DNA of 32,328 nt, taken from NCBI GenBank assembly GCA_964344235.1, contig CAYFMJ010000009.1, positions 1 to 32,328 on the forward strand, in the 5' to 3' direction. The translations under genes and the position numbers were made by a program. The notes below the pieces were generated by a model, which worked only from the letters and a program-made list of their open reading frames with translations, searched no databases and was not told where the DNA came from. This DNA is from an uncultured Methanosarcinales archaeon (GTDB taxonomy: Archaea > Nanobdellota > Nanobdellia > Woesearchaeales > GW2011-AR9). Numbering within the stretch: position 1 is the stretch's first letter; each line of letters begins with the position of its first letter. Below are positions 4,085 to 26,448 of this stretch, piece after piece.

Positions 4085-7000
4085 CTATTTGAATTTTCTC
4101 CCCTTTGAATTCGCCCCTATAACAGAGTTCATTTGACCGCTAAATTGTAAGCGGATAAATTCACCCATGTCTTTTTTAAGGAGCATTGGAATTTCATAAC
4201 GAGCGTAACTATTCCTCTTATCTTTATCAGTCAATACAATATACACTCTGTCTCTATACTTTTTCTTCGCGGCGGCAAACTTCTCATCAGTCCTCCCACG
4301 ATGTTTTTTCAATCCTTTACCTGTCTCAATCTCTAGCACAATTTCCTGTCCAACTTTATTCTTGAACACAATATCGGGTTTCTTCGTTGTATACACAGAA
4401 ACCTCCTCAGTATACTTTTTCAACTCATCAACGATTAATCCAACAAGTAACGTGTGTTCTAATGATTCGTTATGTTTTTGCTTCACGTAATACGTATGCG
4501 GGCCGGATGTTAAGCCGTGTCCTTTCTTCATCACATAGCCATGATTTGCGAGAACATTCACTTGTAACACGGTAAGACCTTTTGCAGGATAGATTAATTG
4601 TGTTAAATCTAAGTTAGCGGATTCTTTCTCTTTGCTGGTATCTTTAGGGGGTTCTTTCTTTTCACTCAGCTTAATCATTTCATCTGGATTCGTGGTGATC
4701 AGCTTATGTTCTTCTGGAGACGCAATTACTTCCAACTCTTGATGTTCATTTTCCAAAATTAGAATGCCATTGCCCAAAGAAGCAGAAACAAGGAAATCTC
4801 TCTCGTTCTGTGATAGATTAAATGTGCGAGCAACGTTTGAAATTACCGCGGGTTTCTGCCTTAATAGAAACGTATACGAAGTATTAGCTAATACTGCATG
4901 CCCTGCTTTTGAACCAACTAAATCAGCAACGTCTTGTGTAATCATTAACAACCCGAGATTATACTTTCGACATGTCTTCACAATTTCAAAGACATATGAT
5001 GATTCTTCCGCTGTTTGCAGCATTGACCACGCTTCATCAATCACCAACAATTTTCTGTTTGAAGACTCCTTCATTTTCATATATACATGATCCAAAACCA
5101 GATACATCACAACCGGTTTTACTTGCTTAGGCATATTACCAATATTAAAGCAGACGAATTTGTTATCAAAATTAATGCGAGTTTGTCGATCCAGAAAACC
5201 AAACACCCCTTTAGAAGTATACATATGTAATCTATTAAGTAATGCCCGATACGTTACCTCTTCCTGCTTAGGAACAGATTTCATCAGTTTTTCAAGCATT
5301 GCATACAAATCACTAAGAATCGGCGGCTCAGAAGCGTCATAGTTATCCCTATCAATCCCTTTGTCTTCATAAGTCATATCAATAGCTCGATCTAAAATGC
5401 TCTTCTGCAGCTCATTTATGTCACCAAACATGATGCCAAACAAATCTATCAAACTAAGGCGTTTCTCTAAGTATTCATGTCCCATCAGATCGAGAGGGTT
5501 AATGATTGTCTTAGAATCTTTAGAGATGGTAATCGTCTCTCCTTTGTATTGCTCTGTAATCGCAAGATATTCTCCTTGCGGATCAATAATAATCACATCG
5601 CATCCATTCATGAATTGCCGTGAAATCAATAGTTTCGTGAAATACGATTTTCCGGATCCAGATGTTGCCAAGATGACACCATTGGCATTCGCCAAATGGA
5701 AAATGTTCTTAATGTATGGAATCTTATTCTTGTTCAATCCTAAGAGGACACCATCAGTGTCAATATCTAAGAAAGGTGATGAAAACGGAAAAAATGCAGA
5801 AAGTCCTTTTGTGTGAATGTTTCTCTTGGCATTAAGTTTGTTCTTCCCTAGCGGCAACATGGATTCATACGCCGCCATCATCTCAAACAATGGCGTTTTA
5901 GATTGAATCATCAAACCATCTAAACCTGCTTTGACTTTTTTCGCAAGCAAATTAACTTCTTGCAGAGATTTACCTTTACACATAATGTATAAGCTAACAT
6001 TGAAGAGCTTCTGCTTTCCCTTCTGCAAATCTTCTAAGACTTTTTTAGTGGACTTAAATTTAATATCTAATGAGGGGTTAATGATTCCTTTCTTCGAATC
6101 TGCATACAAATCAGATTGCTGCTTTTGTAATTCTCTATTAAGTTGAATCATCGTATGCTCGATGGGGAACGGTTCAATATGCACAGAAATATCATATTTC
6201 TCACCAGAAGAAATGATTTTATCTAAGAATCCCATCTCCACAGAGTGGGGGTAACCAGTCACTTGAATGACTTTACAAAAGAGATCATTAACTTTGAAAT
6301 GGTCAGGCATGAATTTGATTTTTTCAGGAGCATAGAGAAAATGTGCTACGTCGTTCGTTTGTTCTTTCTTGAGTTCTTTCTTTTTGTTATGGGCGATATA
6401 GCTGTGAAAGAAAGTTACAGTATCTTCTTTGGTTAGTTTTCGTACTTTTAGTCCTAATTTATCAATACCTTCTTGACAAATCCTAATCTGCATAGATAGC
6501 GTATCTTTCTCAGGAATAATGATGTAAAAATTTCTGTTTTGGATATTGTTCGTTTGAATTGATTGTCGAATAAATTGACAATATGAATCTAAAAGAGGCT
6601 TATATTGTTCTCCTTGTTTCTTGACTTGTTTGTGTGTATATGTGAAATGTTCTCCTAAGTGAATAGGGTTGCTTGTAATATGAATCTGGATAGGGAAATC
6701 TAAAGAATTAAGAAATTTCTCAAAACTAAGTAAAATTGACTCCTGCTCTTCGTTAGTTTTGAGCATGAAATTCATTGGAATGACTTCGAGAATAGCTAAT
6801 TTGTTTTTAGAAAGTTCAATTATATCATCGACTTTTTTCACATCAACGATGCGTTTAAGATCATCACTCAATAATTCCATCTCTTGGTGACGCAGATGAC
6901 CAACCAAACTCTTTGTCTTATGAAGTCCGTCAAAGAACATAAAGAAGCTTGCAGCTGCGATGATGAGTGTTCCGATAGGAATAACTGCTTCAATCGGCAA

Positions 7001-7120
7001 GAATTTGAGCAGAAAGATAATGATGAGTAAAGAAGGCGCTGCTATCGCTAGCTGAAAGAGAGTCAACCTGAAGATGATTCTCTCTTTGTGCTGTAGTGGT
7101 GGTGGGATGTCATATGCCAT
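4085..7120 (-). CDS. virB4: VirB4/TraE-like T4SS ATPase with N-terminal PrgI/VirB3-like membrane region and C-terminal PD-(D/E)xK-like domain
   Basis: N-terminal IIFRLTLFQL plus two TM helices (PrgI-like); FLNSLDFPIQI; LSAFFPFSS; Walker A ATSGSGKS; IIIDPQGEY; Walker B LLVIDEAW; RKYNLGLLMITQ. C-terminal H...PDIV...EIETG. Confidence 0.88.
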   Translation of the reverse strand: MAYDIPPPLQHKERIIFRLTLFQLAIAAPSLLIIIFLLKFLPIEAVIPIGTLIIAAASFFMFFDGLHKTKSLVGHLRHQEMELLSDDLKRIVDVKKVDDIIELSKNKLAILEVIPMNFMLKTNEEQESILLSFEKFLNSLDFPIQIHITSNPIHLGEHFTYTHKQVKKQGEQYKPLLDSYCQFIRQSIQTNNIQNRNFYIIIPEKDTLSMQIRICQEGIDKLGLKVRKLTKEDTVTFFHSYIAHNKKKELKKEQTNDVAHFLYAPEKIKFMPDHFKVNDLFCKVIQVTGYPHSVEMGFLDKIISSGEKYDISVHIEPFPIEHTMIQLNRELQKQQSDLYADSKKGIINPSLDIKFKSTKKVLEDLQKGKQKLFNVSLYIMCKGKSLQEVNLLAKKVKAGLDGLMIQSKTPLFEMMAAYESMLPLGKNKLNAKRNIHTKGLSAFFPFSSPFLDIDTDGVLLGLNKNKIPYIKNIFHLANANGVILATSGSGKSYFTKLLISRQFMNGCDVIIIDPQGEYLAITEQYKGETITISKDSKTIINPLDLMGHEYLEKRLSLIDLFGIMFGDINELQKSILDRAIDMTYEDKGIDRDNYDASEPPILSDLYAMLEKLMKSVPKQEEVTYRALLNRLHMYTSKGVFGFLDRQTRINFDNKFVCFNIGNMPKQVKPVVMYLVLDHVYMKMKESSNRKLLVIDEAWSMLQTAEESSYVFEIVKTCRKYNLGLLMITQDVADLVGSKAGHAVLANTSYTFLLRQKPAVISNVARTFNLSQNERDFLVSASLGNGILILENEHQELEVIASPEEHKLITTNPDEMIKLSEKKEPPKDTSKEKESANLDLTQLIYPAKGLTVLQVNVLANHGYVMKKGHGLTSGPHTYYVKQKHNESLEHTLLVGLIVDELKKYTEEVSVYTTKKPDIVFKNKVGQEIVLEIETGKGLKKHRGRTDEKFAAAKKKYRDRVYIVLTDKDKRNSYARYEIPMLLKKDMGEFIRLQFSGQMNSVIGANSKGRKFK

Positions 7121-7210
7121 GAACTTAATTTTTACTCAAAAGTGACGAAAGATTTAAAAACAAAGAACCAATTTGGTTCTTTATAAACCCATAACGAAGG
7201 TGAATATATT

Positions 7211-8074
7211 ATGACATTACAATTTAGCGGAAAAAGTGAAATGGTTATGCCCTACAAAGCATTTCCTCAAGAAGGAACAGGAAGAATGATTGATATTGTT
7301 CCTCAAGCTGTTGCACAGGGCTATGCTCTCGCATCTGTTGCACAAGTTGCAGATCGTCGAATGAATGCGCCAGAAGATGCGCGCCCAGTATGGCGAAATA
7401 ATTACGTTTTTACTGCCGATGCATTTACAAGAGGAACAGAGGGAGATTCTGTTTTTACGTTAGATGAAGAAGCTCTTTTGACACTTACTCCCGAAGTTGC
7501 TGGTTCTCTTATCGCAGGTGCTCTGCCACGCTCTGCAGAAGAATTCGCACAACTGCGTGAAGATGGACTTTATCTTAGTGCAGAACAAACTGCAGAATTA
7601 AACGGAAAAGGATGGGCATATAGTGGTGGTGTCTGGAAACCAGAGGCGCCTGTTGTTGCAGAGGTTACCGATTTCGTACTACGAGGAATGAGTGAAGCCG
7701 ATCGGATTCAATACCTAAATGGAGTTCGAGATGATTCTAAATCAAATAGAGTAATGAGGTTCTACCATGGTGGTTCAAATGATGACACAGTTCTAATGCG
7801 GTCTGTGGTTGTTGATGGAACTAGGTACGATTCCATTGTTGATGGTGATAGCTATCTCTATAGCAATAATGCCCGTCTCGTCGGGGTAGCGCCGGAGGCG
7901 CCTGTTGCGCGCGAAAAATTAGCTGCGACAGATTTGGAGGGAACACTTCAAACCGCTGATGTTGGCTCAGTACTTGAGGATGCTTCTCGGCTAAATGATT
8001 TCGCACCAAACCAAGTAACATTATTGAGAAACGTTCTTGAGGAAGGTGGTTACCAGATTGTTAAACCCAAGTAA
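7211..8074 (+). CDS. DGR target (variable) protein, 287 aa; CLec-like fold inferred
   Basis: Contains VR in frame (RSVVVDGTRYDSIVDGDSYLYSNNARLVGV), with GAAGGTGA ribosome site at ~7196-7203. No signal peptide or TM helix visible. Confidence 0.92.
   Translation: MTLQFSGKSEMVMPYKAFPQEGTGRMIDIVPQAVAQGYALASVAQVADRRMNAPEDARPVWRNNYVFTADAFTRGTEGDSVFTLDEEALLTLTPEVAGSLIAGALPRSAEEFAQLREDGLYLSAEQTAELNGKGWAYSGGVWKPEAPVVAEVTDFVLRGMSEADRIQYLNGVRDDSKSNRVMRFYHGGSNDDTVLMRSVVVDGTRYDSIVDGDSYLYSNNARLVGVAPEAPVAREKLAATDLEGTLQTADVGSVLEDASRLNDFAPNQVTLLRNVLEEGGYQIVKPK
7798..7888 (+). repeat. DGR variable region (VR)
   Basis: 91-nt ungapped alignment to 8281-8371 has 16 mismatches: 11 A>G, 4 A>T, 0 A>C, and one non-A mismatch (T>G, AAT>AGG). 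Confidence 0.96.
7889..7901 (+). promoter_or_regulatory. IMH-associated hairpin GCGCC-GGA-GGCGC
   Basis: Perfect 5-bp GC stem with a GRA triloop starting immediately after VR. It is absent after TR. Such hairpins are established cis-elements for DGR homing. Confidence 0.8.
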
Positions 8075-8280
8075 GGTTTTGTTTTCAGTTACTTTTTTAT
8101 ACTTCTTCTTTTGTTCTTTTCTTTGTCCCAGCTCGCTCAATGAATCTCATTGGGTTGATTGAGAGAGTTGGTCTACACGTCCTTTCGCCATGGCAGCGTT
8201 GCTGTTATAAAATACAACTCCGACTTGATGCTCTGCACTGAAGGGGTGGTGACTTCACAGAGGCGAGAGGGCTACTCTAG

Positions 8281-8371
8281 GCGGTCTGTGGTTGTTAATA
8301 AAACTAATAACAATTCCAATGTTAATGGTAATAACAATCTCAATAACAATAATGCCCGTCTCGTCGGAATA
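8281..8371 (+). ncRNA. DGR template region (TR)
   Basis: GCGGTCTGTGGTTGTT-AAT AAA ACT AAT AAC AAT TCC AAT GTT AAT GGT AAT AAC AAT CTC AAT AAC AAT AAT-GCCCGTCTCGTCGGAATA. It has 13 AAY codons and 33 adenines in the VR frame. Confidence 0.96.
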
Positions 8372-8431
8372 TACCAACTCTTATGGCTGGGACATCTTTT
8401 ATGGAGCATTTTGAAATGAGTTCTTACAAAT

Positions 8432-10156
8432 TTGTCGTTACTGGGGGGGGCACAACCCTTGCAATCACTTTATGGTGATATTTGTTCTTCAGAGAATATT
8501 GAACTTGCCTTCAAGAAAGCGCGGAAAGGGAAAACTCTCAAACCGTATGTCATTGAGTTCGAGGAAGAACTCGAAAGGAATCTAGCTCAACTTCAGACAG
8601 AGCTTAAACTTTTATGCTACAAACCAATACCACTTGAGACATTTATTCTGCGTGATCCCAAGACACGTAAAATTAGCAAATCTGATTTTCGTGATCGTGT
8701 TGTCCATCACGCAATATGTAACGTTATTGAATCGTTCTTTGAGAAAGATTTCATAAATGATTCCTTTGCAAACCGAAAAGGCAAAGGAACATTTAATGCA
8801 CTCAAACGCTTTGAACAGTTTGCACGAAAAGTATCAAAGAACCATTCACAGGAATGTTATGTCTTAAAAGCTGATGTTCGGCATTATTTCGATACCGTTG
8901 ATCATGCTGTTCTTATTAAAATCCTTGAGAGAAAAATCACAGATGAGAAAGTGTTATGGCTCATCAAAGTTATTTTATCGAATCATAGAACTCAAACTGA
9001 TGGCAAAGGTATGCCACTTGGAAATCTGACATCCCAATTTTTTGCGAACGTGTATCTTAACGAGCTGGATCAATTTGTAAAGCATACCTTGAGAGCAAGA
9101 CACTACATTCGCTACGTAGATGACTTTGTAATCTTAGACACATCTCCCAAGTTACTTCTAGAGTACAAAGAGAAGATCAATCAATTCCTTACAACACGGC
9201 TGCTTCTAACACTTCATCCTGATAAATCAAGAGTGCTTCGGTTGTATGATGGCATTGCATTTCTTGGTATGCGAGTATTCCCTCATCATAAACGTATTCA
9301 AAAACGCAATATTCGCCGCTTTACAAAGAAGTTTACGATTCTTCGAAGAAAGCATCGCGATGGGAAAATTCTTCGTGAGAAAGCACTGGAACACTTTGAG
9401 GGTTGGCTTGCCTACACTTCTCATGCAAATACGTTCAAGTACCGTAAACATCTCGTAAGGATGTTTAATGATTTCTTTCCTCTTGAACTGCCTGTGCCAG
9501 TTCACCATACAAAGAAACATGAAAATTTCGTGAGAAAGGGCGAAGAATCTTCACTGCAATTTAGCGTTCAAAAAACACTACAACTCTTCAAACAAGAAAA
9601 ATCCATTCGGGAGATTTCAAGAATTCGAGCTGTTAAAGAGAGCACAGTCTGGGATCACCTTTCGAATTTGATTGAATTCAATCAACTTTCTGTATGGAAG
9701 GTTCTTGGTAAGGAAAAAGCAAAGTTGATTCTCTCCAAAATAAGTTCTGAAAATGATTCATTAAAAATAATTAAAAGCAGAATCTCAAATAAGGATATTA
9801 CATATGATGAAATTCAATGCGCTCTGGCGTATGTTAAGAGTAAAAATAGAGCAAAGCACATTCATCACCACATTAAGTGGTATAAACAAGTTCATTGCTT
9901 GAGAAAATGCTTCTTCAACAAAGCTCAACGAAGAGAGTGTGCGAAGAAGTTTGATTTGCTTCAATCAAATCAACCAGACTTGAACTTGAAGCGAGACGAT
10001 TTTATTGATTTATTTAACAATCATCTCACAATTTGTGTTCTTCCTGATAAGGAAAAGAGAGGGTATATCTCATGGGAGCAATTTAGGAAAATAAAAGCTC
10101 TTGTAGTGAAGAAAATAAGAGGAAGCGTTACCTTCCCCACCAGTACCAAGCCCTAA
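8432..10156 (+). CDS. DGR reverse transcriptase with C-terminal HTH_40-like domain and Cys/His-containing tail
   Basis: LY..I.S.ENI..AF.KARKGK; PK.R.I....FRDRVVHHA; SFANRKGKGT; LKADVRHYFDTVDH; GMPLGNLTSQFFANVYL; YVDD at 9113-9124; FLG. Start uncertain (TTG 8432, TTG 8459, or an upstream ATG out of frame across the G8 run). Confidence 0.95.
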   Translation: MSLLGGAQPLQSLYGDICSSENIELAFKKARKGKTLKPYVIEFEEELERNLAQLQTELKLLCYKPIPLETFILRDPKTRKISKSDFRDRVVHHAICNVIESFFEKDFINDSFANRKGKGTFNALKRFEQFARKVSKNHSQECYVLKADVRHYFDTVDHAVLIKILERKITDEKVLWLIKVILSNHRTQTDGKGMPLGNLTSQFFANVYLNELDQFVKHTLRARHYIRYVDDFVILDTSPKLLLEYKEKINQFLTTRLLLTLHPDKSRVLRLYDGIAFLGMRVFPHHKRIQKRNIRRFTKKFTILRRKHRDGKILREKALEHFEGWLAYTSHANTFKYRKHLVRMFNDFFPLELPVPVHHTKKHENFVRKGEESSLQFSVQKTLQLFKQEKSIREISRIRAVKESTVWDHLSNLIEFNQLSVWKVLGKEKAKLILSKISSENDSLKIIKSRISNKDITYDEIQCALAYVKSKNRAKHIHHHIKWYKQVHCLRKCFFNKAQRRECAKKFDLLQSNQPDLNLKRDDFIDLFNNHLTICVLPDKEKRGYISWEQFRKIKALVVKKIRGSVTFPTSTKP

Positions 10157-10174
10157 GTTTTCGCCTTAGGAATT

Positions 10175-12202
10175 CTACAATAAAGCAGCAATATACTTAG
10201 CTGCTCGTCCGATGTCATCTTTCAATGATGTGTTTACTGCTCTTTTGATTGCAAATTTTGTCACTAACCACAATGTGTAATTGACAATCATAAAACAGGC
10301 AATCACGATGAACGTTTTCATGTTGGAAAACGTTTCCATTTCTAACAATTTGGAACAAGCTAGAATTATGAGTAAATCAAAAAATGTAATGAACATCATT
10401 AACAGATGTAAATTCATAATGAAGCGACCATACGGTTTTAATGGTGGTACGTAAAAGCAGAAGATGCCAATAGGAAAGAATATGACGCCCAAGCAAATGA
10501 CAATATACCTAAACAATAAGAAGAATATAGTTCCGAGCAATGTAAACACATAAATCATGCTCGTAAGAATCCACATCCCTACATTCAAGATATTATCTGC
10601 AGGTAACAGAAAGAATGTTGGGTCAATCATGCCAACTATCACGGAACTCATATTCACACTAATATCTAACAGTGAATCGTAAATATAATATGATCCATTA
10701 ATCAAGATAATCATTAGAATAGTATCTTTCAGTAATTCTTTTGCATGTGCCCTCTTAATAGGATCAACATTTGACAATAATAATGTATACCCAGCATAGA
10801 TGAAAAAGAAAATGTAGAAGAAACTGAGGATATACGTTATGATTGACCACACTCCTTTAAACAGATGAATAGCAACGTCTGCAAATAATAATTTGTATGC
10901 GATTGCTAATAATGGAGCAATTGGAGCGTTGAATAATAAAAGTAAAAAGTCTTGCAATGTATCTTGCACGCAACTGCCTAAATTTGTGATTGAACACTCT
11001 TTCTCTTCTGCTATCGCTGTTGGGAGAAGTAATAATAAAAGTAGGATTGGTAAGATTATTTTCTTGGCTTGAGATTTGAGAAGTTTGTAAATGATGTAAC
11101 ATACTCCAAGAAAGATAAGAATATACCACAACAAGTTAAGATTAACATCTCTTTTCTCTATTGTAATTGCTTCGTGCTCTTGTGAAGTATTAACCAAGTT
11201 GCAATCTTCTGAATATTTACTAAAGTGATCTTGAACTGTGACTAAGCAAGTGTTGATATTTTTCAGATAGAATGTATTTCCATCAATGTAAATATTATCA
11301 GCTTTGGTGAGGTCAACTTCTTTTGCTTCTAGAAACGCTATATGCAGTGGTTGTTTTTCAAAGACAACACTATATGTGTAATGTTGTTTTGTTAGGCGAG
11401 AATCCTCAAAGTCCAACGTAAACGTACTATAATTCCCAACAGAAAACTCTCCTTTTGTGGTGTTTGAATATTGATCTATTATTGCAACATCGAAGATTGG
11501 TTTCTGATCATACAGCGTTACATCTCTACTCTCACTTATCGCCAAACTATCATAACCATAGGATGTGTGATGGTACTTGCAGAACCACTTCTTCTTTCCC
11601 CAACTCCATTTCTGTTGCCACCAGTAATGTTTAACCTCGATTTCAACATTGATTGTCAGTTCTGATCTAATCTCTCCAGAAGAATCTATGTTTAATATCT
11701 CTGATGTACCTCTATACTCGTCATTAAAGTAATAATTAACCTCTGCGCTGTTGCTTTGCAGTGAGTACGTTCTTTGACAATCGCCATTACTGTTTTGTGG
11801 ATACGAGTTAGCGTAGTAATTTTGCGGTAGCTGCACATCATAATCATAATCACTATGCACTTGCGTCAGAGCAGTAACAAATAACTCATCGTCAACATAC
11901 ACTGATGGAGATAGCCATGAGAATGAAATCCATGCGTTTTTGATGTATGCAGAACTCTTTGTGTTACTGTTGTATGGTTTAGATGAAACATCAATATTGC
12001 CATTATATTTTTTGATGACGTTATGGTTGGGAGTTGATGATTCTGGATACAGTAATGCTGAGTAAACAGCATCTTTATTCACAACATCAGAAGTTTGAAC
12101 AGAATAACAATAGTCTTGCTCTGAAACCAGAGAACAATCAAAAGAAAGGACTGCTGGGAGTAATAAAACAAACAGAACTCCCAGAAGTATTATTTTTCTC
12201 AT
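10175..12202 (-). CDS. Large membrane protein: secreted N-terminal domain fused to a VirB6/TrbL-like multi-TM domain
   Basis: Start at ATG 12202 (MRKIILLG..., signal peptide; ATGA overlap with the pilin stop). The C-terminal ~280 aa has about six hydrophobic helices, with FFLLFRYIVICLGVIFFPIGIFCFYVP resembling VirB6/TrbL. Confidence 0.72.
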   Translation of the reverse strand: MRKIILLGVLFVLLLPAVLSFDCSLVSEQDYCYSVQTSDVVNKDAVYSALLYPESSTPNHNVIKKYNGNIDVSSKPYNSNTKSSAYIKNAWISFSWLSPSVYVDDELFVTALTQVHSDYDYDVQLPQNYYANSYPQNSNGDCQRTYSLQSNSAEVNYYFNDEYRGTSEILNIDSSGEIRSELTINVEIEVKHYWWQQKWSWGKKKWFCKYHHTSYGYDSLAISESRDVTLYDQKPIFDVAIIDQYSNTTKGEFSVGNYSTFTLDFEDSRLTKQHYTYSVVFEKQPLHIAFLEAKEVDLTKADNIYIDGNTFYLKNINTCLVTVQDHFSKYSEDCNLVNTSQEHEAITIEKRDVNLNLLWYILIFLGVCYIIYKLLKSQAKKIILPILLLLLLLPTAIAEEKECSITNLGSCVQDTLQDFLLLLFNAPIAPLLAIAYKLLFADVAIHLFKGVWSIITYILSFFYIFFFIYAGYTLLLSNVDPIKRAHAKELLKDTILMIILINGSYYIYDSLLDISVNMSSVIVGMIDPTFFLLPADNILNVGMWILTSMIYVFTLLGTIFFLLFRYIVICLGVIFFPIGIFCFYVPPLKPYGRFIMNLHLLMMFITFFDLLIILACSKLLEMETFSNMKTFIVIACFMIVNYTLWLVTKFAIKRAVNTSLKDDIGRAAKYIAALL

Positions 12203-12525
12203 GAGAATATCAGCTTCACAATCAACGGTGCAACCCAAATCACAATTAAACCAATCACAACGCCGCCAATCATATGTTTTGCTCGGTCTTTCTTTGCAGT
12301 CTCAGCGCCAGCGGTGATAAACGATACTCCCGCAAAGACAACCATTAACACGCCAATAATTGTCGCTGCGTATTTTAAGATGTTATATACTTTCATCACT
12401 GGTTCTAAGATTGTGTCTACTTGTTGTTCCTCTTCATCACTTAAACCAGAATCAAAGTCAAGCTCAGCCAATGTTATTGGTACAACCAACAGTGCCAATA
12501 AGAATAAAGGCAGAATCCATTTCAT
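12199..12525 (-). CDS. VirB2/TrbC-like pilin
   Basis: 108 aa with a signal peptide, then IIGVLMVVFAGVSFITAG-AETAKKDRAKHMIGGVVIGLIVIWVAPLIV (two TM helices with a basic loop), the typical T4SS pilin pattern. Confidence 0.82.
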   Translation of the reverse strand: MKWILPLFLLALLVVPITLAELDFDSGLSDEEEQQVDTILEPVMKVYNILKYAATIIGVLMVVFAGVSFITAGAETAKKDRAKHMIGGVVIGLIVIWVAPLIVKLIFS

Positions 12526-12770
12526 TGTATATTACCTCCAAAGTTTTTTTCAAATACAGAACTAAGAAGGGAAGGCTCTTCCTCTTGAGGTGGAGCAACT
12601 GGTAAGAGAGGAGTGTTATCAGAAATAGATCTCACGTCAGTTTGCTTTTTCTCAGGAAGAACCTTCCGTTGGGTTACTAATTTAACAATAAGTACGATAA
12701 TCAAAATTATCTCTGTAACAAATATTGAGATAATTACTCCTACAATAATTCCAATAATAAAATCAGACAC
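12522..12770 (-). CDS. Small single-TM hypothetical protein
   Basis: 82 aa with a long N-terminal hydrophobic helix; overlaps both neighbours (translational coupling). Confidence 0.7.
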   Translation of the reverse strand: MSDFIIGIIVGVIISIFVTEIILIIVLIVKLVTQRKVLPEKKQTDVRSISDNTPLLPVAPPQEEEPSLLSSVFEKNFGGNIQ

Positions 12771-13668
12771 AATACATCACCTCTTTTAGATTTGTTGCTA
12801 ACGATTGAGCAAGGAGAGGAGGGACAGCATTGCCGATCTGCTTAACCATTGAAGTCTTAGAACCTTTGAAATGAAACGAATCGGGAAATGATTGCAGCCG
12901 AGCTAATTCTCGAGGCGTGAGAAAGCGATCGTAATACGGATGAATGAAAATGGGTTTCGTGGTAATAGTTTTCGATGGTTTATCGGCACATAGCCTCTGC
13001 CGTGAAAAGTTGTATTTGTTGCATAACTTCTCACCCTGCTTGAGCCCTTTTATTCTTTCTTGTACTTTTGGCGAAGTCTCAAAGAACAAGTGAGCATTGT
13101 GAGGCAAGTCGGAGAGAGATTCAATGACAGTTTTCTCTCTTGTCTTTCTAAGATTAAAGACCGGAAGTTTAATACCAATGATGAAGAGTCTTTTTCGTCT
13201 TTGTGGCACGCCATAATCGGAAGCGGTCAAGACAGAGAATGAAACAAAGTATCCTAATTGTATGAAATCTTGAACGATTTTATCAATAACTTTCCTGCCA
13301 TCATAATCGTTCATACTGAGAAGTCCCTGCACATTTTCCATAACAACTGCTTTTGGTTGGATAATACGGACGAAACGCAGGTATTCTTTGTAGAGCTGGT
13401 TTCGTATATCTTTGGAGTTGCGTTTACCACATAAAGAGAAGCCTTGACAGGGAGGCCCACCAACAATAATATCAGCTTTGTATTGAGCAATGACGGAATC
13501 AGATATCTTAGTAATGTCAGTTCCGATATGAACTGCGTTGCGATGATTTTCTTTATATGTTTCAATAGCTGGTTTCCAATTTTCCACAAAACCAATAATC
13601 TCAAACCCAGCTCGTTCAAAACCAGAACTAAATCCGCCGCAGCCAGCAAAGAGGTCTAACACTTTCAT
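12763..13668 (-). CDS. dcm: DNA (cytosine-5)-methyltransferase
   Basis: DLFAGCGG (motif I), GGPPCQGFS (IV), ENV (VI), QRRKRLF (VIII), RELARLQSFPD (IX), QIGNAVPP (X). Confidence 0.95.
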   Translation of the reverse strand: MKVLDLFAGCGGFSSGFERAGFEIIGFVENWKPAIETYKENHRNAVHIGTDITKISDSVIAQYKADIIVGGPPCQGFSLCGKRNSKDIRNQLYKEYLRFVRIIQPKAVVMENVQGLLSMNDYDGRKVIDKIVQDFIQLGYFVSFSVLTASDYGVPQRRKRLFIIGIKLPVFNLRKTREKTVIESLSDLPHNAHLFFETSPKVQERIKGLKQGEKLCNKYNFSRQRLCADKPSKTITTKPIFIHPYYDRFLTPRELARLQSFPDSFHFKGSKTSMVKQIGNAVPPLLAQSLATNLKEVMYCV

Positions 13669-13793
13669 TGGTATACCCTCCGGTGTGTCTCCTCAGCTTC
13701 CGCTGCTCTGTCCTTGTATTTTCTTTCCAGAAATAAACGACAGTCTTCACAAATTTCATCAAGTTGTTTTCCACAGATAGTACATGTTGCCAT
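13665..13793 (-). CDS. Small zinc-finger protein (42 aa)
   Basis: MATCTICGKQLDEICEDCR with two CxxC motifs; ATGA overlap with dcm. ATG 13793 is preferred over the ORF-track start at 13850. Confidence 0.6.
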   Translation of the reverse strand: MATCTICGKQLDEICEDCRLFLERKYKDRAAEAEETHRRVYQ

Positions 13794-13920
13794 GAAAAAC
13801 TGGCAGATTAGAAAATATAAATAGCACCGAGGGAAAAATAAAGTATTCAAAAAATACTTTTACAGCGATATACAGAAAATTTATCATAAAATATATAACT
13901 AAAGTCTTGATCCAGTTGTT

Positions 13921-25317: not shown

Positions 25318-26448
25318 TTATGGTTGTAGCGTTGTATGAATACGCGGGAAAAGACTTGCAGAATAGATAAAAGGCATCTCCAAAAGACCTTGAACCAAGC
25401 GTTCCCACCCCATACCAAATCCCGAAGTAGATTCATAGTCGTCAAACTTTCTTGATTGCAAATAGGGTGCATAGTCCTCTCGAGGAAGATTAAAGATTTC
25501 GGCTTTCACTCCAAGTTCTTCAACAGATCTTACTCTGTGGCCACTTCCAACAGTTTCTCTATAACCCGGCCAGATAATATCACAATTGTCTGCAACTGCG
25601 GGCACTGATCCATCTTTGACAGCATGATAGAATGGAACTTCAAGAAGAGGCATTTCAGAGACTCCGATAATTCCACCAACAATCTCTGTAAGCCTAACTT
25701 CTTCCCATGATCCAAAATGTTTTAATGTAAATTCTTTGTATCTCTCATCTCCTGTGTCTTCATACAATAATTCTAAAGCTTCTGCAAGAGACACAATTGG
25801 TAGTGGCCCTGCAAACATGTCCCTCAGGTGTTGAATTTTTCTTTGGCCAATAAAGAACTCTAAATCGTCACCATTGTGCTTAATTATATCGCTAACAATT
25901 CTCCGAAGTAGTCCATATGCTATTTCTACATTCTTAGCTTGAGGAACTTTTCCCTCGTATTCCACATGATGAAACTCTGAGAGGTGGGTTGGGTCAGCCT
26001 CTTCTTTTCTGAATGAATGATAATTCGCATAAACATGATCAACTCCGCTTTGCAAGAGAGCTAACTCTAGGTAAATCTGTGATGATTCCGCAAGGAATGC
26101 TTCTCGTGGAAGGTCAAACCAGGAAAGTTTTACTGGACATGTATCAGTTGTATAATCAATTGCTTCTCTTCCATAAACTGCTCCGGGAGAAGAAATCATA
26201 CGAGTTGTTAATGGAACGGGCATAAATAAAGCTCCAAGAGCAGCAAAATATTGGCCAACAGCCATGTTAATCCTATCATTAATTCTTGAGATCCTCGCCC
26301 ACATCTCGTCGTTGTGTATACTTGTGACTCTTTGTTCAATTTCAGAGGTCCCTAATCCAACAGACGTTACATCAGTAATAGGAGAAAATAACCTGTTGCC
26401 CTTAAAATCAATCGTTCTGTTGGCCGAAGCAGTGTAAGGTCCTAACAT
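25318..26448 (-). CDS. AsnRS-like class II synthetase catalytic-core paralog lacking the OB-fold anticodon domain (archaeal asparagine synthetase A-like)
   Basis: FLAESSQIYLE, SFRKE...HLSEFHHVEYE (motif 2), ETVGSGHR, GFGMGWERL...FPR (motif 3). No RGWV OB-fold N-terminus. Confidence 0.8.
   Translation of the reverse strand: MLGPYTASANRTIDFKGNRLFSPITDVTSVGLGTSEIEQRVTSIHNDEMWARISRINDRINMAVGQYFAALGALFMPVPLTTRMISSPGAVYGREAIDYTTDTCPVKLSWFDLPREAFLAESSQIYLELALLQSGVDHVYANYHSFRKEEADPTHLSEFHHVEYEGKVPQAKNVEIAYGLLRRIVSDIIKHNGDDLEFFIGQRKIQHLRDMFAGPLPIVSLAEALELLYEDTGDERYKEFTLKHFGSWEEVRLTEIVGGIIGVSEMPLLEVPFYHAVKDGSVPAVADNCDIIWPGYRETVGSGHRVRSVEELGVKAEIFNLPREDYAPYLQSRKFDDYESTSGFGMGWERLVQGLLEMPFIYSASLFPRIHTTLQP

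Follow-up and report, generated by a model that had tools for sequence, protein, structure and literature searches.

A complete diversity-generating retroelement (DGR) resides within a cluster of type IV secretion system (T4SS)-like genes in an uncultured Woesearchaeota-type DPANN archaeon (assembly GCA_964344235.1), where it occupies the junction between a VirB6-like gene and the gene for a VirB3-like/VirB4 fusion protein. The stretch analysed, hereafter the window, is the entire contig CAYFMJ010000009.1 (C9; 32,328 nucleotides, 32.3 kb) of a 1.19-Mb genome which is 96% complete in 37 contigs. The DGR is most probably a mobile, self-contained passenger, carried as cargo in a recurrent slot of an accessory, multi-copy VirB2/VirB6/VirB4 module resembling those of the FATA class of mating-pair formation (MPF) systems. 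The cassette is made up of a gene for a variable protein of the AvpA type, an RT-16 RNA motif, a template repeat (TR) and a long reverse transcriptase (RT) that ends in an HTH_40 domain. Clusters of the basic form have their VirB6-like and VirB4 genes translationally coupled via an ATGA overlap; in the split form the VirB6-like gene ends in a two-hairpin, T-rich element, with VirB4 served by a putative TATA promoter of its own. The DNA in the split junction turns over, its occupants being nucleases, helicases, defence systems, genes of metal homeostasis or a DGR. Arrival of the DGR may have been by horizontal exchange, most likely through recombination via the conserved flanks or the hairpin element, and its link with the cluster would then reflect joint residence in a mobile gene pool and no working partnership. 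The cluster may itself transfer DNA between cells, with the DGR travelling along.

The DGR lies on the plus strand, between the stop of the VirB6-like gene (10175) and the start of the VirB3/VirB4 gene (7120), both of which are on the minus strand (Table 1). Its coordinates and strand, the overlap-coupled minus-strand gene run, the 18 nucleotides separating the ends of the RT and VirB6-like open reading frames (ORFs; 10156 and 10175) and a palindrome in the spacer had all been described in a first-pass annotation made by a model from the sequence alone, and all are confirmed by the ORFs and the sequence. The TR and the variable repeat (VR) differ at 14 positions, of which 13 are TR adenines, and all 13 fall on the first or second position of a codon. 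This pattern shows adenine-directed rewriting of about 13 codon positions in what is predicted to be the binding face of a lectin fold, as in AvpA-type DGRs elsewhere. The RT-16 RNA lies flush with the TR at its 5' end and probably forms the structured portion of the DGR's template RNA. Neither an Avd gene nor a separate HRDC gene accompanies the RT, which instead carries a fused HTH_40 domain; DGRs lacking Avd have been documented for the candidate phyla radiation (CPR) and DPANN (PMC5758913), and an accessory gene is thus not obligatory. The sole ORF between target and RT (8159–8419, 86 aa) was considered as an Avd candidate and rejected, as it overlaps the TR and matches no family. When the genome was searched with this RT as query a single RT was found, and homologues are present in 119 of 401 genomes of the phylum; of 20 related loci, most have TR/VR pairs with an A bias. 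Repeats that might bound the inserted 3 kb, whether direct or inverted, were sought, with nothing convincing found.

The strongest evidence that the DGR is cargo comes from clusters which lack it. In what follows, W denotes the cluster in the window, L-numbers are related loci, C-numbers contigs of the same genome and G-numbers other genomes. When the proteins of the window were searched against their own genome with tblastn, paralogous clusters were found on C5 and C8, and further VirB4 copies on C4, C19 and C28. On both C5 and C8 the VirB4 start shares an ATGA with the VirB6-like stop, GGAGG or GGGGG lies inside the last VirB6-like codons, and there is neither an RT nor a target gene. A wider census drew on samples blind to the RT, in which 15 of 61 genomes from the family yielded VirB4 and 45 of 401 from the order yielded the VirB6-like C-terminal domain. 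It comprises 47 clusters with both junction genes visible, scored with hidden Markov models (HMMs) in the fetched regions, and it counts as coupled any junction with a gap of 20 nt or less. The junction is coupled in 27 of the 47 (C5, C8 and 25 more), holds 0.3–3.7 kb of other DNA in 16 and holds a DGR in four. The other cargo includes a complete Gabija system in L109 (G556:C6, 4429–8038; GajA 632 and GajB 553 bits in PADLOC), a PD-DExK/NucC-like DUF6602 nuclease (L099), a UvrD helicase (L100), a DUF4238 protein (L108), a GIY-YIG nuclease (L125), a ZIP transporter with Fur and DUF134 proteins (L092) and several unknown proteins. Changes between the coupled and the cargo-bearing state number at least 10 on the VirB4 tree. 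Given these repeated changes and the variety of the cargo, the VirB6-like/VirB4 junction is therefore a cargo hot spot, of which the DGR is one tenant of many.

The phylogenies of the two parts tell the same story. In the RT tree W groups with L021 and L022 (Shimodaira–Hasegawa-like approximate likelihood-ratio support, SH-aLRT, 99), L021 being a locus without adjacent T4SS genes. In the VirB4 tree W falls with L083, L084, L100 and L105, which are coupled or bear other cargo, and L022 with L089; the approximately unbiased (AU) test rejects a VirB4 clade of W and L022 (p=1e-7). The trees are incongruent, and the DGR and the T4SS-like machine therefore have separate histories. The comparison of RT with VirB4 had been put forward in the first-pass annotation as a check on its proposals, and its outcome favours insertion. 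A recombination tract shared by W and L022 around the DGR was also sought and was not seen: the VirB3-like N-terminus is 37% and the VirB6-like C-terminal domain about 53–55% identical between the two, and these flank identities are no higher than those to clusters without a DGR. Of the earlier suggestion that the DGR had inserted into an apparatus able to spread it, the insertion is thus well supported, by the empty sites, the clusters with other cargo and the tree conflict; the spread we infer.

By the test that the first-pass annotation had set itself, linkage between DGR and cluster is recurrent, but it concerns a minority of loci. Among 62 RT loci fetched, split evenly into 31 long (HTH_40) and 31 short, T4SS genes stand beside the RT in three (L022, L024 and L032), whilst the other 59 are without VirB4, VirB6-like and pilin genes to a distance of about 10 kb. 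L022, from another genus, is identical to the window in layout and boundaries. L024, from another family, has a window-like layout in which the cluster is reduced to a VirB3-like stub and a VirB6-like C-terminal domain, and in this decayed cluster the DGR persists with an A-mutated VR. In L032 the DGR occupies the VirB6-like/VirB3 junction and is co-oriented with the cluster, whereas it is antiparallel in W, L022 and L024. Two further cases came from the RT-blind samples. L084, from the VirB4-based sample, has a complete DGR just downstream of VirB4, with 13 of 13 mismatches at A. L132 (G351:C33, 5841–6916), from the VirB6-based sample, has an AvpA-like gene and a TR upstream of a gene for the VirB6-like C-terminal domain; 16 of its 18 VR mismatches are at TR adenines, the TR lies about 60 nt before the VirB6-like gene, and the 7-kb contig contains no RT. 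Conversely, 12 of 15 further genomes with long-RT, AvpA-type DGRs (93–100% complete) lack such a VirB4 altogether, and in the remaining three it is on another contig. AvpA-type DGRs therefore do not require this apparatus.

A number of observations weigh against regarding the DGR as a mere passenger. DGR parts are found at about 6 of 50 clusters (W, L022, L024, L032, L084 and L132), far above the random-site expectation given about half a DGR per 1.2-Mb genome; some specific affinity between DGR and cluster therefore exists, and it may be mechanistic, selective or a combination. In L032 the arrangement resembles an operon, the co-oriented target and RT genes standing between the VirB6-like gene and VirB3. 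Proteins of the AvpA family lack a signal peptide and bear a helical tail of some 60 aa, which makes an unconventional export route possible. As for mobility, contig C9 yielded no integrase, att repeats or tRNA gene. A relaxase and VirD4, which the first-pass annotation had proposed to look for along with an integrase, did not come to light either: the profiles PF02534, PF01580 and PF03432, for coupling protein, FtsK-like protein and relaxase, matched nothing genome-wide in a search to which the controls responded and which left other relaxase families aside. Mobility of the C9 cluster itself is at most a possibility, and the cluster might export or import DNA. Finally, all the genomes are metagenome-assembled, and absences are provisional.

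A rival reading is a functional partnership, in which the AvpA-type protein would be a substrate, tip or adhesin of the machine, its hypervariation would retune partner-cell recognition, and the slot would serve co-regulation. The recurrence of DGR adjacency in several arrangements, the operon-like layout of L032, a target family which throughout its alignment has no signal peptide and conserves the tail after the VR, and a divergent spacer that could co-regulate target and VirB4 would all fit such a partnership. It is nevertheless unlikely. The great majority of related RT loci and of genomes with this DGR type do without the cluster, the slot in other clusters holds Gabija, nucleases or ZIP/Fur, the trees disagree, and the DGR of L024 has kept its A-mutated VR beside a cluster in ruins. 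Targets with the tail are equally common at loci unlinked to a T4SS. In Bacteroides, where DGRs are borne by integrative conjugative elements (ICEs), transfer does not need the variable protein (bioRxiv 10.1101/2024.11.15.621889). The first-pass annotation had offered, as its other possibility, a stable system whose hypervariable protein tunes the machine, and this is not supported, given the same counts of unlinked loci and VirB4-less genomes and the survival of the L024 element. It is quite improbable, too, that AvpA-type proteins reach the surface or a partner cell via VirB2/VirB6/VirB4, such that capture of the DGR amounted to recruitment of a hypervariable recognition module for a cell-contact or DNA-transfer machine; were it so, DPANN symbionts would possess a programmable device for partner recognition.

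There is little likelihood, either, that the DGR belonged to the original cluster and that coupled clusters and those with other cargo arose by its repeated loss or replacement. The two-hairpin element is common to W, L022 and the distant clade of L032 (VirB4 about 48% identical), and two deep VirB4 clades include DGR-bearing clusters, as an ancestral DGR would predict. Against this, the coupled form is in the majority and is scattered across the whole VirB4 tree, and repeated precise deletions, each restoring both the ATGA overlap and an in-gene, Shine-Dalgarno-like GGAGG, are not to be expected. The incongruence of RT and VirB4 and the fact that most of the long-RT clade lies outside such clusters point the same way. 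A mis-assembly of repeated clusters, or a binning error, joining a DGR to T4SS-like genes in the metagenome is very improbable indeed. The assembly is in 37 contigs, it contains several paralogous clusters, and C5 and C8 end within VirB4 copies; however, independent assemblies of L022 and L024 show the same layout and boundaries, and on C9 the flanking genes are intact and run without a break into housekeeping genes on either side.

Table 1. Features of the DGR and the surrounding T4SS-like cluster, in order along the window
Feature	Position	Strand	Evidence or remark
VirB3-like transmembrane (TM) hairpin, VirB4 conjugal ATPase and C-terminal PD-(D/E)xK-like domain in a single 1011-aa ORF	4085-7120	-	PF19044 97 bits, PF01935, PF12846
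AT-rich divergent spacer, 90 nt, with TATA-like boxes for both directions	7121-7210	.	sequence
DGR variable protein (target), AvpA family, C-type lectin fold	7211-8074	+	AF2, Foldseek, profile match
VR	7798-7884	+	87 nt; encodes aa 196-225 of the target
RT-16 RNA motif (Rfam RF03019)	8128-8280	+	cmscan 73.8 bits (gathering 50), E 7.9e-11, full-length 1-158
TR	8281-8367	+	repeats the VR over 87 nt
DGR reverse transcriptase, long form, with C-terminal HTH_40; start codon approximate	8432-10156	+	PF00078 84.9 bits, PF14493 62.1 bits
Conserved two-hairpin element	10100-10172	-	immediately 3' of the VirB6-like stop
VirB6-like polytopic membrane protein, 687 aa	10175-12238	-	likely true start ATG 12202
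VirB2/TrbC-like T4SS pilin	12199-12525	-	PF18895 37.2 bits (cut-off 26.6), PF04956 31.6 bits (cut-off 27.9)
82-aa single-pass membrane protein with Pro/Glu-rich tail	12522-12770	-	translation
dcm-type C5 cytosine DNA methyltransferase	12763-13668	-	PF00145, 269 bits
Small Cys-rich ORF (CxxC...CxxC)	13665-13850	-	first gene of the overlap-coupled run; ORF list and translation

The target belongs to a known type of DGR variable protein, to judge from its predicted fold and its family profile: it is a member of the AvpA family. An AlphaFold2 (AF2) model built on 90 family members (pLDDT 89.5, pTM 0.80) gave in Foldseek a sole significant PDB match, chain 5ioo_A (AvpA; E 5.4e-7, probability 1.00, TM-score 0.70 normalised to the target). 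The profile of the 90-member family matches AvpA in the PDB with E 2.5e-21 over chain residues 87–255, a stretch which includes the tail after the VR, 62 aa long and helical in the target. An exhaustive profile search found 1234 representatives of the family in 1.84 billion proteins. No Pfam family matches the target, and its 90 relatives gave just three stray, sub-threshold matches. An N-terminal signal or TM segment is absent from every aligned member of the family. AvpA itself is a DGR variable protein of Nanoarchaeota whose function is still unknown (PMC5006420).

The element at the proximal border of the slot has a length of roughly 60 nt. An invariant GCGAAAA loop caps its first, covarying stem; its second hairpin has a GTAACG loop, and a T-run or CGATGAC follows. 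It is present in seven clusters from two distant VirB4 clades (W, L022, L032, L092, L093, L114 and L115), is confined to clusters with cargo in the junction and is absent from coupled ones. RNAalifold reports two covarying pairs in four sequences, and the element matches no Rfam family. In W and L022 the RT ORF traverses it antisense with its last 20 or so codons. Similarity between the window RT and other long RTs stops near aa 553–560, and the RT ORFs of W and L022 extend beyond this point because those final codons read through the element. Its role may be to terminate the pilin/VirB6-like operon or to act as a recombination site for the exchange of cargo, or it may be a small RNA.

At the opposite border, the spacer contains the palindrome AGAACCA-ATT-TGGTTCT (7164–7180), which occurs once in the window with none expected from 100 shuffles. 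W and L022 have in common a VirB4-proximal spacer motif, CTTTCGTCACTTTT, which they carry in place of a motif found in many other split clusters. In the latter (L100, L105, L108, L109, L118, L121, L122 and L125), TCTCCGA(C/G) followed by a TATA-like box lies some 30–60 nt upstream of VirB4, and this motif is a candidate promoter or operator.

The minus-strand genes of the window form an overlap-coupled run, with overlaps of 4, 8, 4 and 40 nt, the last shrinking to 4 nt should translation begin at the internal ATG 12202. At the core of the cluster, the VirB2-like call made in the first-pass annotation holds in the profile search, both pilin families scoring above their cut-offs (Table 1), and most related clusters keep the pilin upstream of the VirB6-like gene. 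The VirB6-like call stands on fold and position, sequence profiles having given nothing: the protein has no match in Pfam (E up to 0.1) or NCBIfam, nor does a 13-sequence profile match PDB sequences. It is laid out as a signal-like segment, a Cys-rich extracellular N-terminal part of about 380 aa and a C-terminal multi-helix membrane domain (aa 381–687). When the C-terminal 307 residues, modelled with AF2 (pLDDT 79), were compared with known structures using VIA-align, the first three ranks were all TrwI/VirB6 of R388, with Z-scores of 9.5, 9.3 and 8.2, which are weak values for helical bundles, where a Z below about 13 is to be so regarded. The best alignment spans 221 residues at an rmsd of 5.4, and the next match, which is unrelated, has a Z of 7.7. 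In some 50 clusters the gene is always found with the pilin on one side and VirB3/4 on the other. Because of this fixed position and the fold ranking, a VirB6-like identity is probable for the 687-aa protein.

What the first-pass annotation had called PrgI-VirB4 is a VirB4 by profile, whilst the PrgI/VirB3 part of the label derives from position and topology. The ORF scores 329.9 bits against the NCBIfam model NF045971, a CD1110-family VirB4-like conjugal ATPase (cut-off 325), in addition to the matches in Table 1, and possesses Walker A (GSGKS) and Walker B (VIDEAW) motifs. The VirB3-like N-terminus, a two-TM hairpin of about 100 aa, stands immediately before VirB4 and in several relatives forms an ORF of its own; neither it nor the free-standing homologues match Pfam or NCBIfam. 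The C-terminal tail of roughly 200 aa (4085–4705, minus strand) has a PD...E-x-E-T-G-K pattern and no Pfam match, and nearly every related VirB4 retains this PD-(D/E)xK-like domain. Free-standing ORFs of the domain also occur beside DGR RTs at loci without other T4SS genes; instances in other loci are L028 (11388–11921), L082 (9380–9829) and L079 (17899–18852). Against the CedD model VirB4 scores 43.2 bits (cut-off 600), its best models being conjugal VirB4 families. By sequence, the cluster is nearest to the MPF-FATA conjugal ATPases and not to Ced.

The cluster is patchy in distribution and multi-copy, with up to 4–6 copies per genome. The genome of the window itself contains at least four to six VirB4-cluster copies or fragments, 47–70% identical to one another (C5, 4819–11284; C8, 29792–35047; C4, 8029–11623; C19; C28). 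Tyrosine integrases adjoin the C5 and C4 copies and are present in 9 of 60 related loci. To our knowledge, archaeal conjugative plasmids likewise do without classical relaxases. Of the remaining genes in the run, the dcm methyltransferase has a paralogue in the C8 cluster (77% identical) and occurs in 9 of 60 related loci. The small Cys-rich ORF has a 67%-identical paralogue at the same position on C8, and the 82-aa membrane protein has paralogues on C5 and C8; neither of these two small proteins matches a Pfam or NCBIfam family.

Several known systems invite comparison. The AvpA-type DGRs of Nanoarchaeota and Woesearchaeota (PDB 5IOO; PMC5006420; PMC4372165) have a target of the same lectin-fold subclass and a DPANN host, and they share with the element described here a VR near, rather than at, the C-terminus and followed by a tail, an AAY-rich TR, adenine-specific mutagenesis and the lack of an Avd gene. 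They differ in that the RT here is of the long form with fused HTH_40 and the cassette lies inside a T4SS-like cluster, a context unreported in PMC4372165, PMC8144416 and PMC5006420. No literature was found on DGRs together with archaeal T4SS-like clusters, in a search which did not take in the main CPR/DPANN survey (Paul et al. 2017, Nat Microbiol), so that an earlier mention is possible. The closest known situation is that of DGRs carried as cargo by bacterial ICEs. Besides the Bacteroides elements, a Legionella pneumophila ICE also carries a DGR, according to the account cited in PMC5758913. In both, as far as these accounts describe them, the DGR is cargo beside conjugation genes and is spread horizontally, and the elements are bacterial, have an integrase, a relaxase and full transfer regions, and direct variation to surface lipoproteins or pilus tips with export signals. 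The present case differs in its archaeal host, its minimal VirB2/VirB6/VirB4 complement, the location of the cassette between two core genes and a target without a signal peptide.

[quoted passage not shown] By comparison, the VirB4 here is of the MPF-FATA, CD1110 type, is fused to a VirB3-like hairpin and to a PD-(D/E)xK-like domain, and belongs to a cluster that is multi-copy and patchy rather than a conserved chromosomal locus. A further parallel lies with bacteria. Conjugative elements such as the SXT-family ICEs have variable hot spots in which defence systems gather. These hot spots resemble the VirB6-like/VirB4 junction in being fixed intergenic sites in a conserved transfer backbone with fast turnover of accessory and defence genes; the slot described here differs in splitting two otherwise coupled core genes and in having a two-hairpin element as its proximal border. 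New here are the host, an archaeon, the placement between two core genes in a minimal T4SS-like module and the recognition of the junction as a slot for cargo and defence genes.

The window offers a case, with empty-site controls in the same genome, of how DGR cassettes move in DPANN archaea, where they seem to be exchanged as cargo at one defined slot of an accessory conjugation-like module. Multi-copy, MPF-FATA-like VirB2/VirB6/VirB3–VirB4 clusters are carried by Woesearchaeota-type archaea and have a junction that behaves like the hot spots of bacterial conjugative elements, and the junction together with the hairpin element may be used as a marker for locating the cargo of archaeal mobile elements. 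For DGR biology, the case speaks against inferring function from gene neighbourhood here.

Some observations concern the wider surroundings of these genes. Related RT loci (L023, L026, L028, L034, L037, L040, L043 and others) often stand beside tyrosine integrases, and also beside gene pairs which by their sequence look resemble HEPN/nucleotidyltransferase modules; such neighbours would fit DGRs residing in mobile islands. In G298, which contains both L024 and L099, about 100 nt before the VirB3-like stub of L024 are nearly identical to the stretch before the intact VirB4 of L099, which suggests a recent partial duplication inside one genome. The remainder of C9, with TrmB and HTH_10 regulators and tRNA-synthetase pieces, is consistent with an archaeal chromosome. 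Three neighbouring ORFs at 25318–27717 (minus strand) correspond to an OB domain of the anticodon-binding kind, a class II (D/K/N) synthetase core and a weaker repeat of that core, and could represent a split or duplicated Asp/Asn-tRNA synthetase. The G+C content of the target-gene region (7001–8000) is 43%, as against 34–38% around it.

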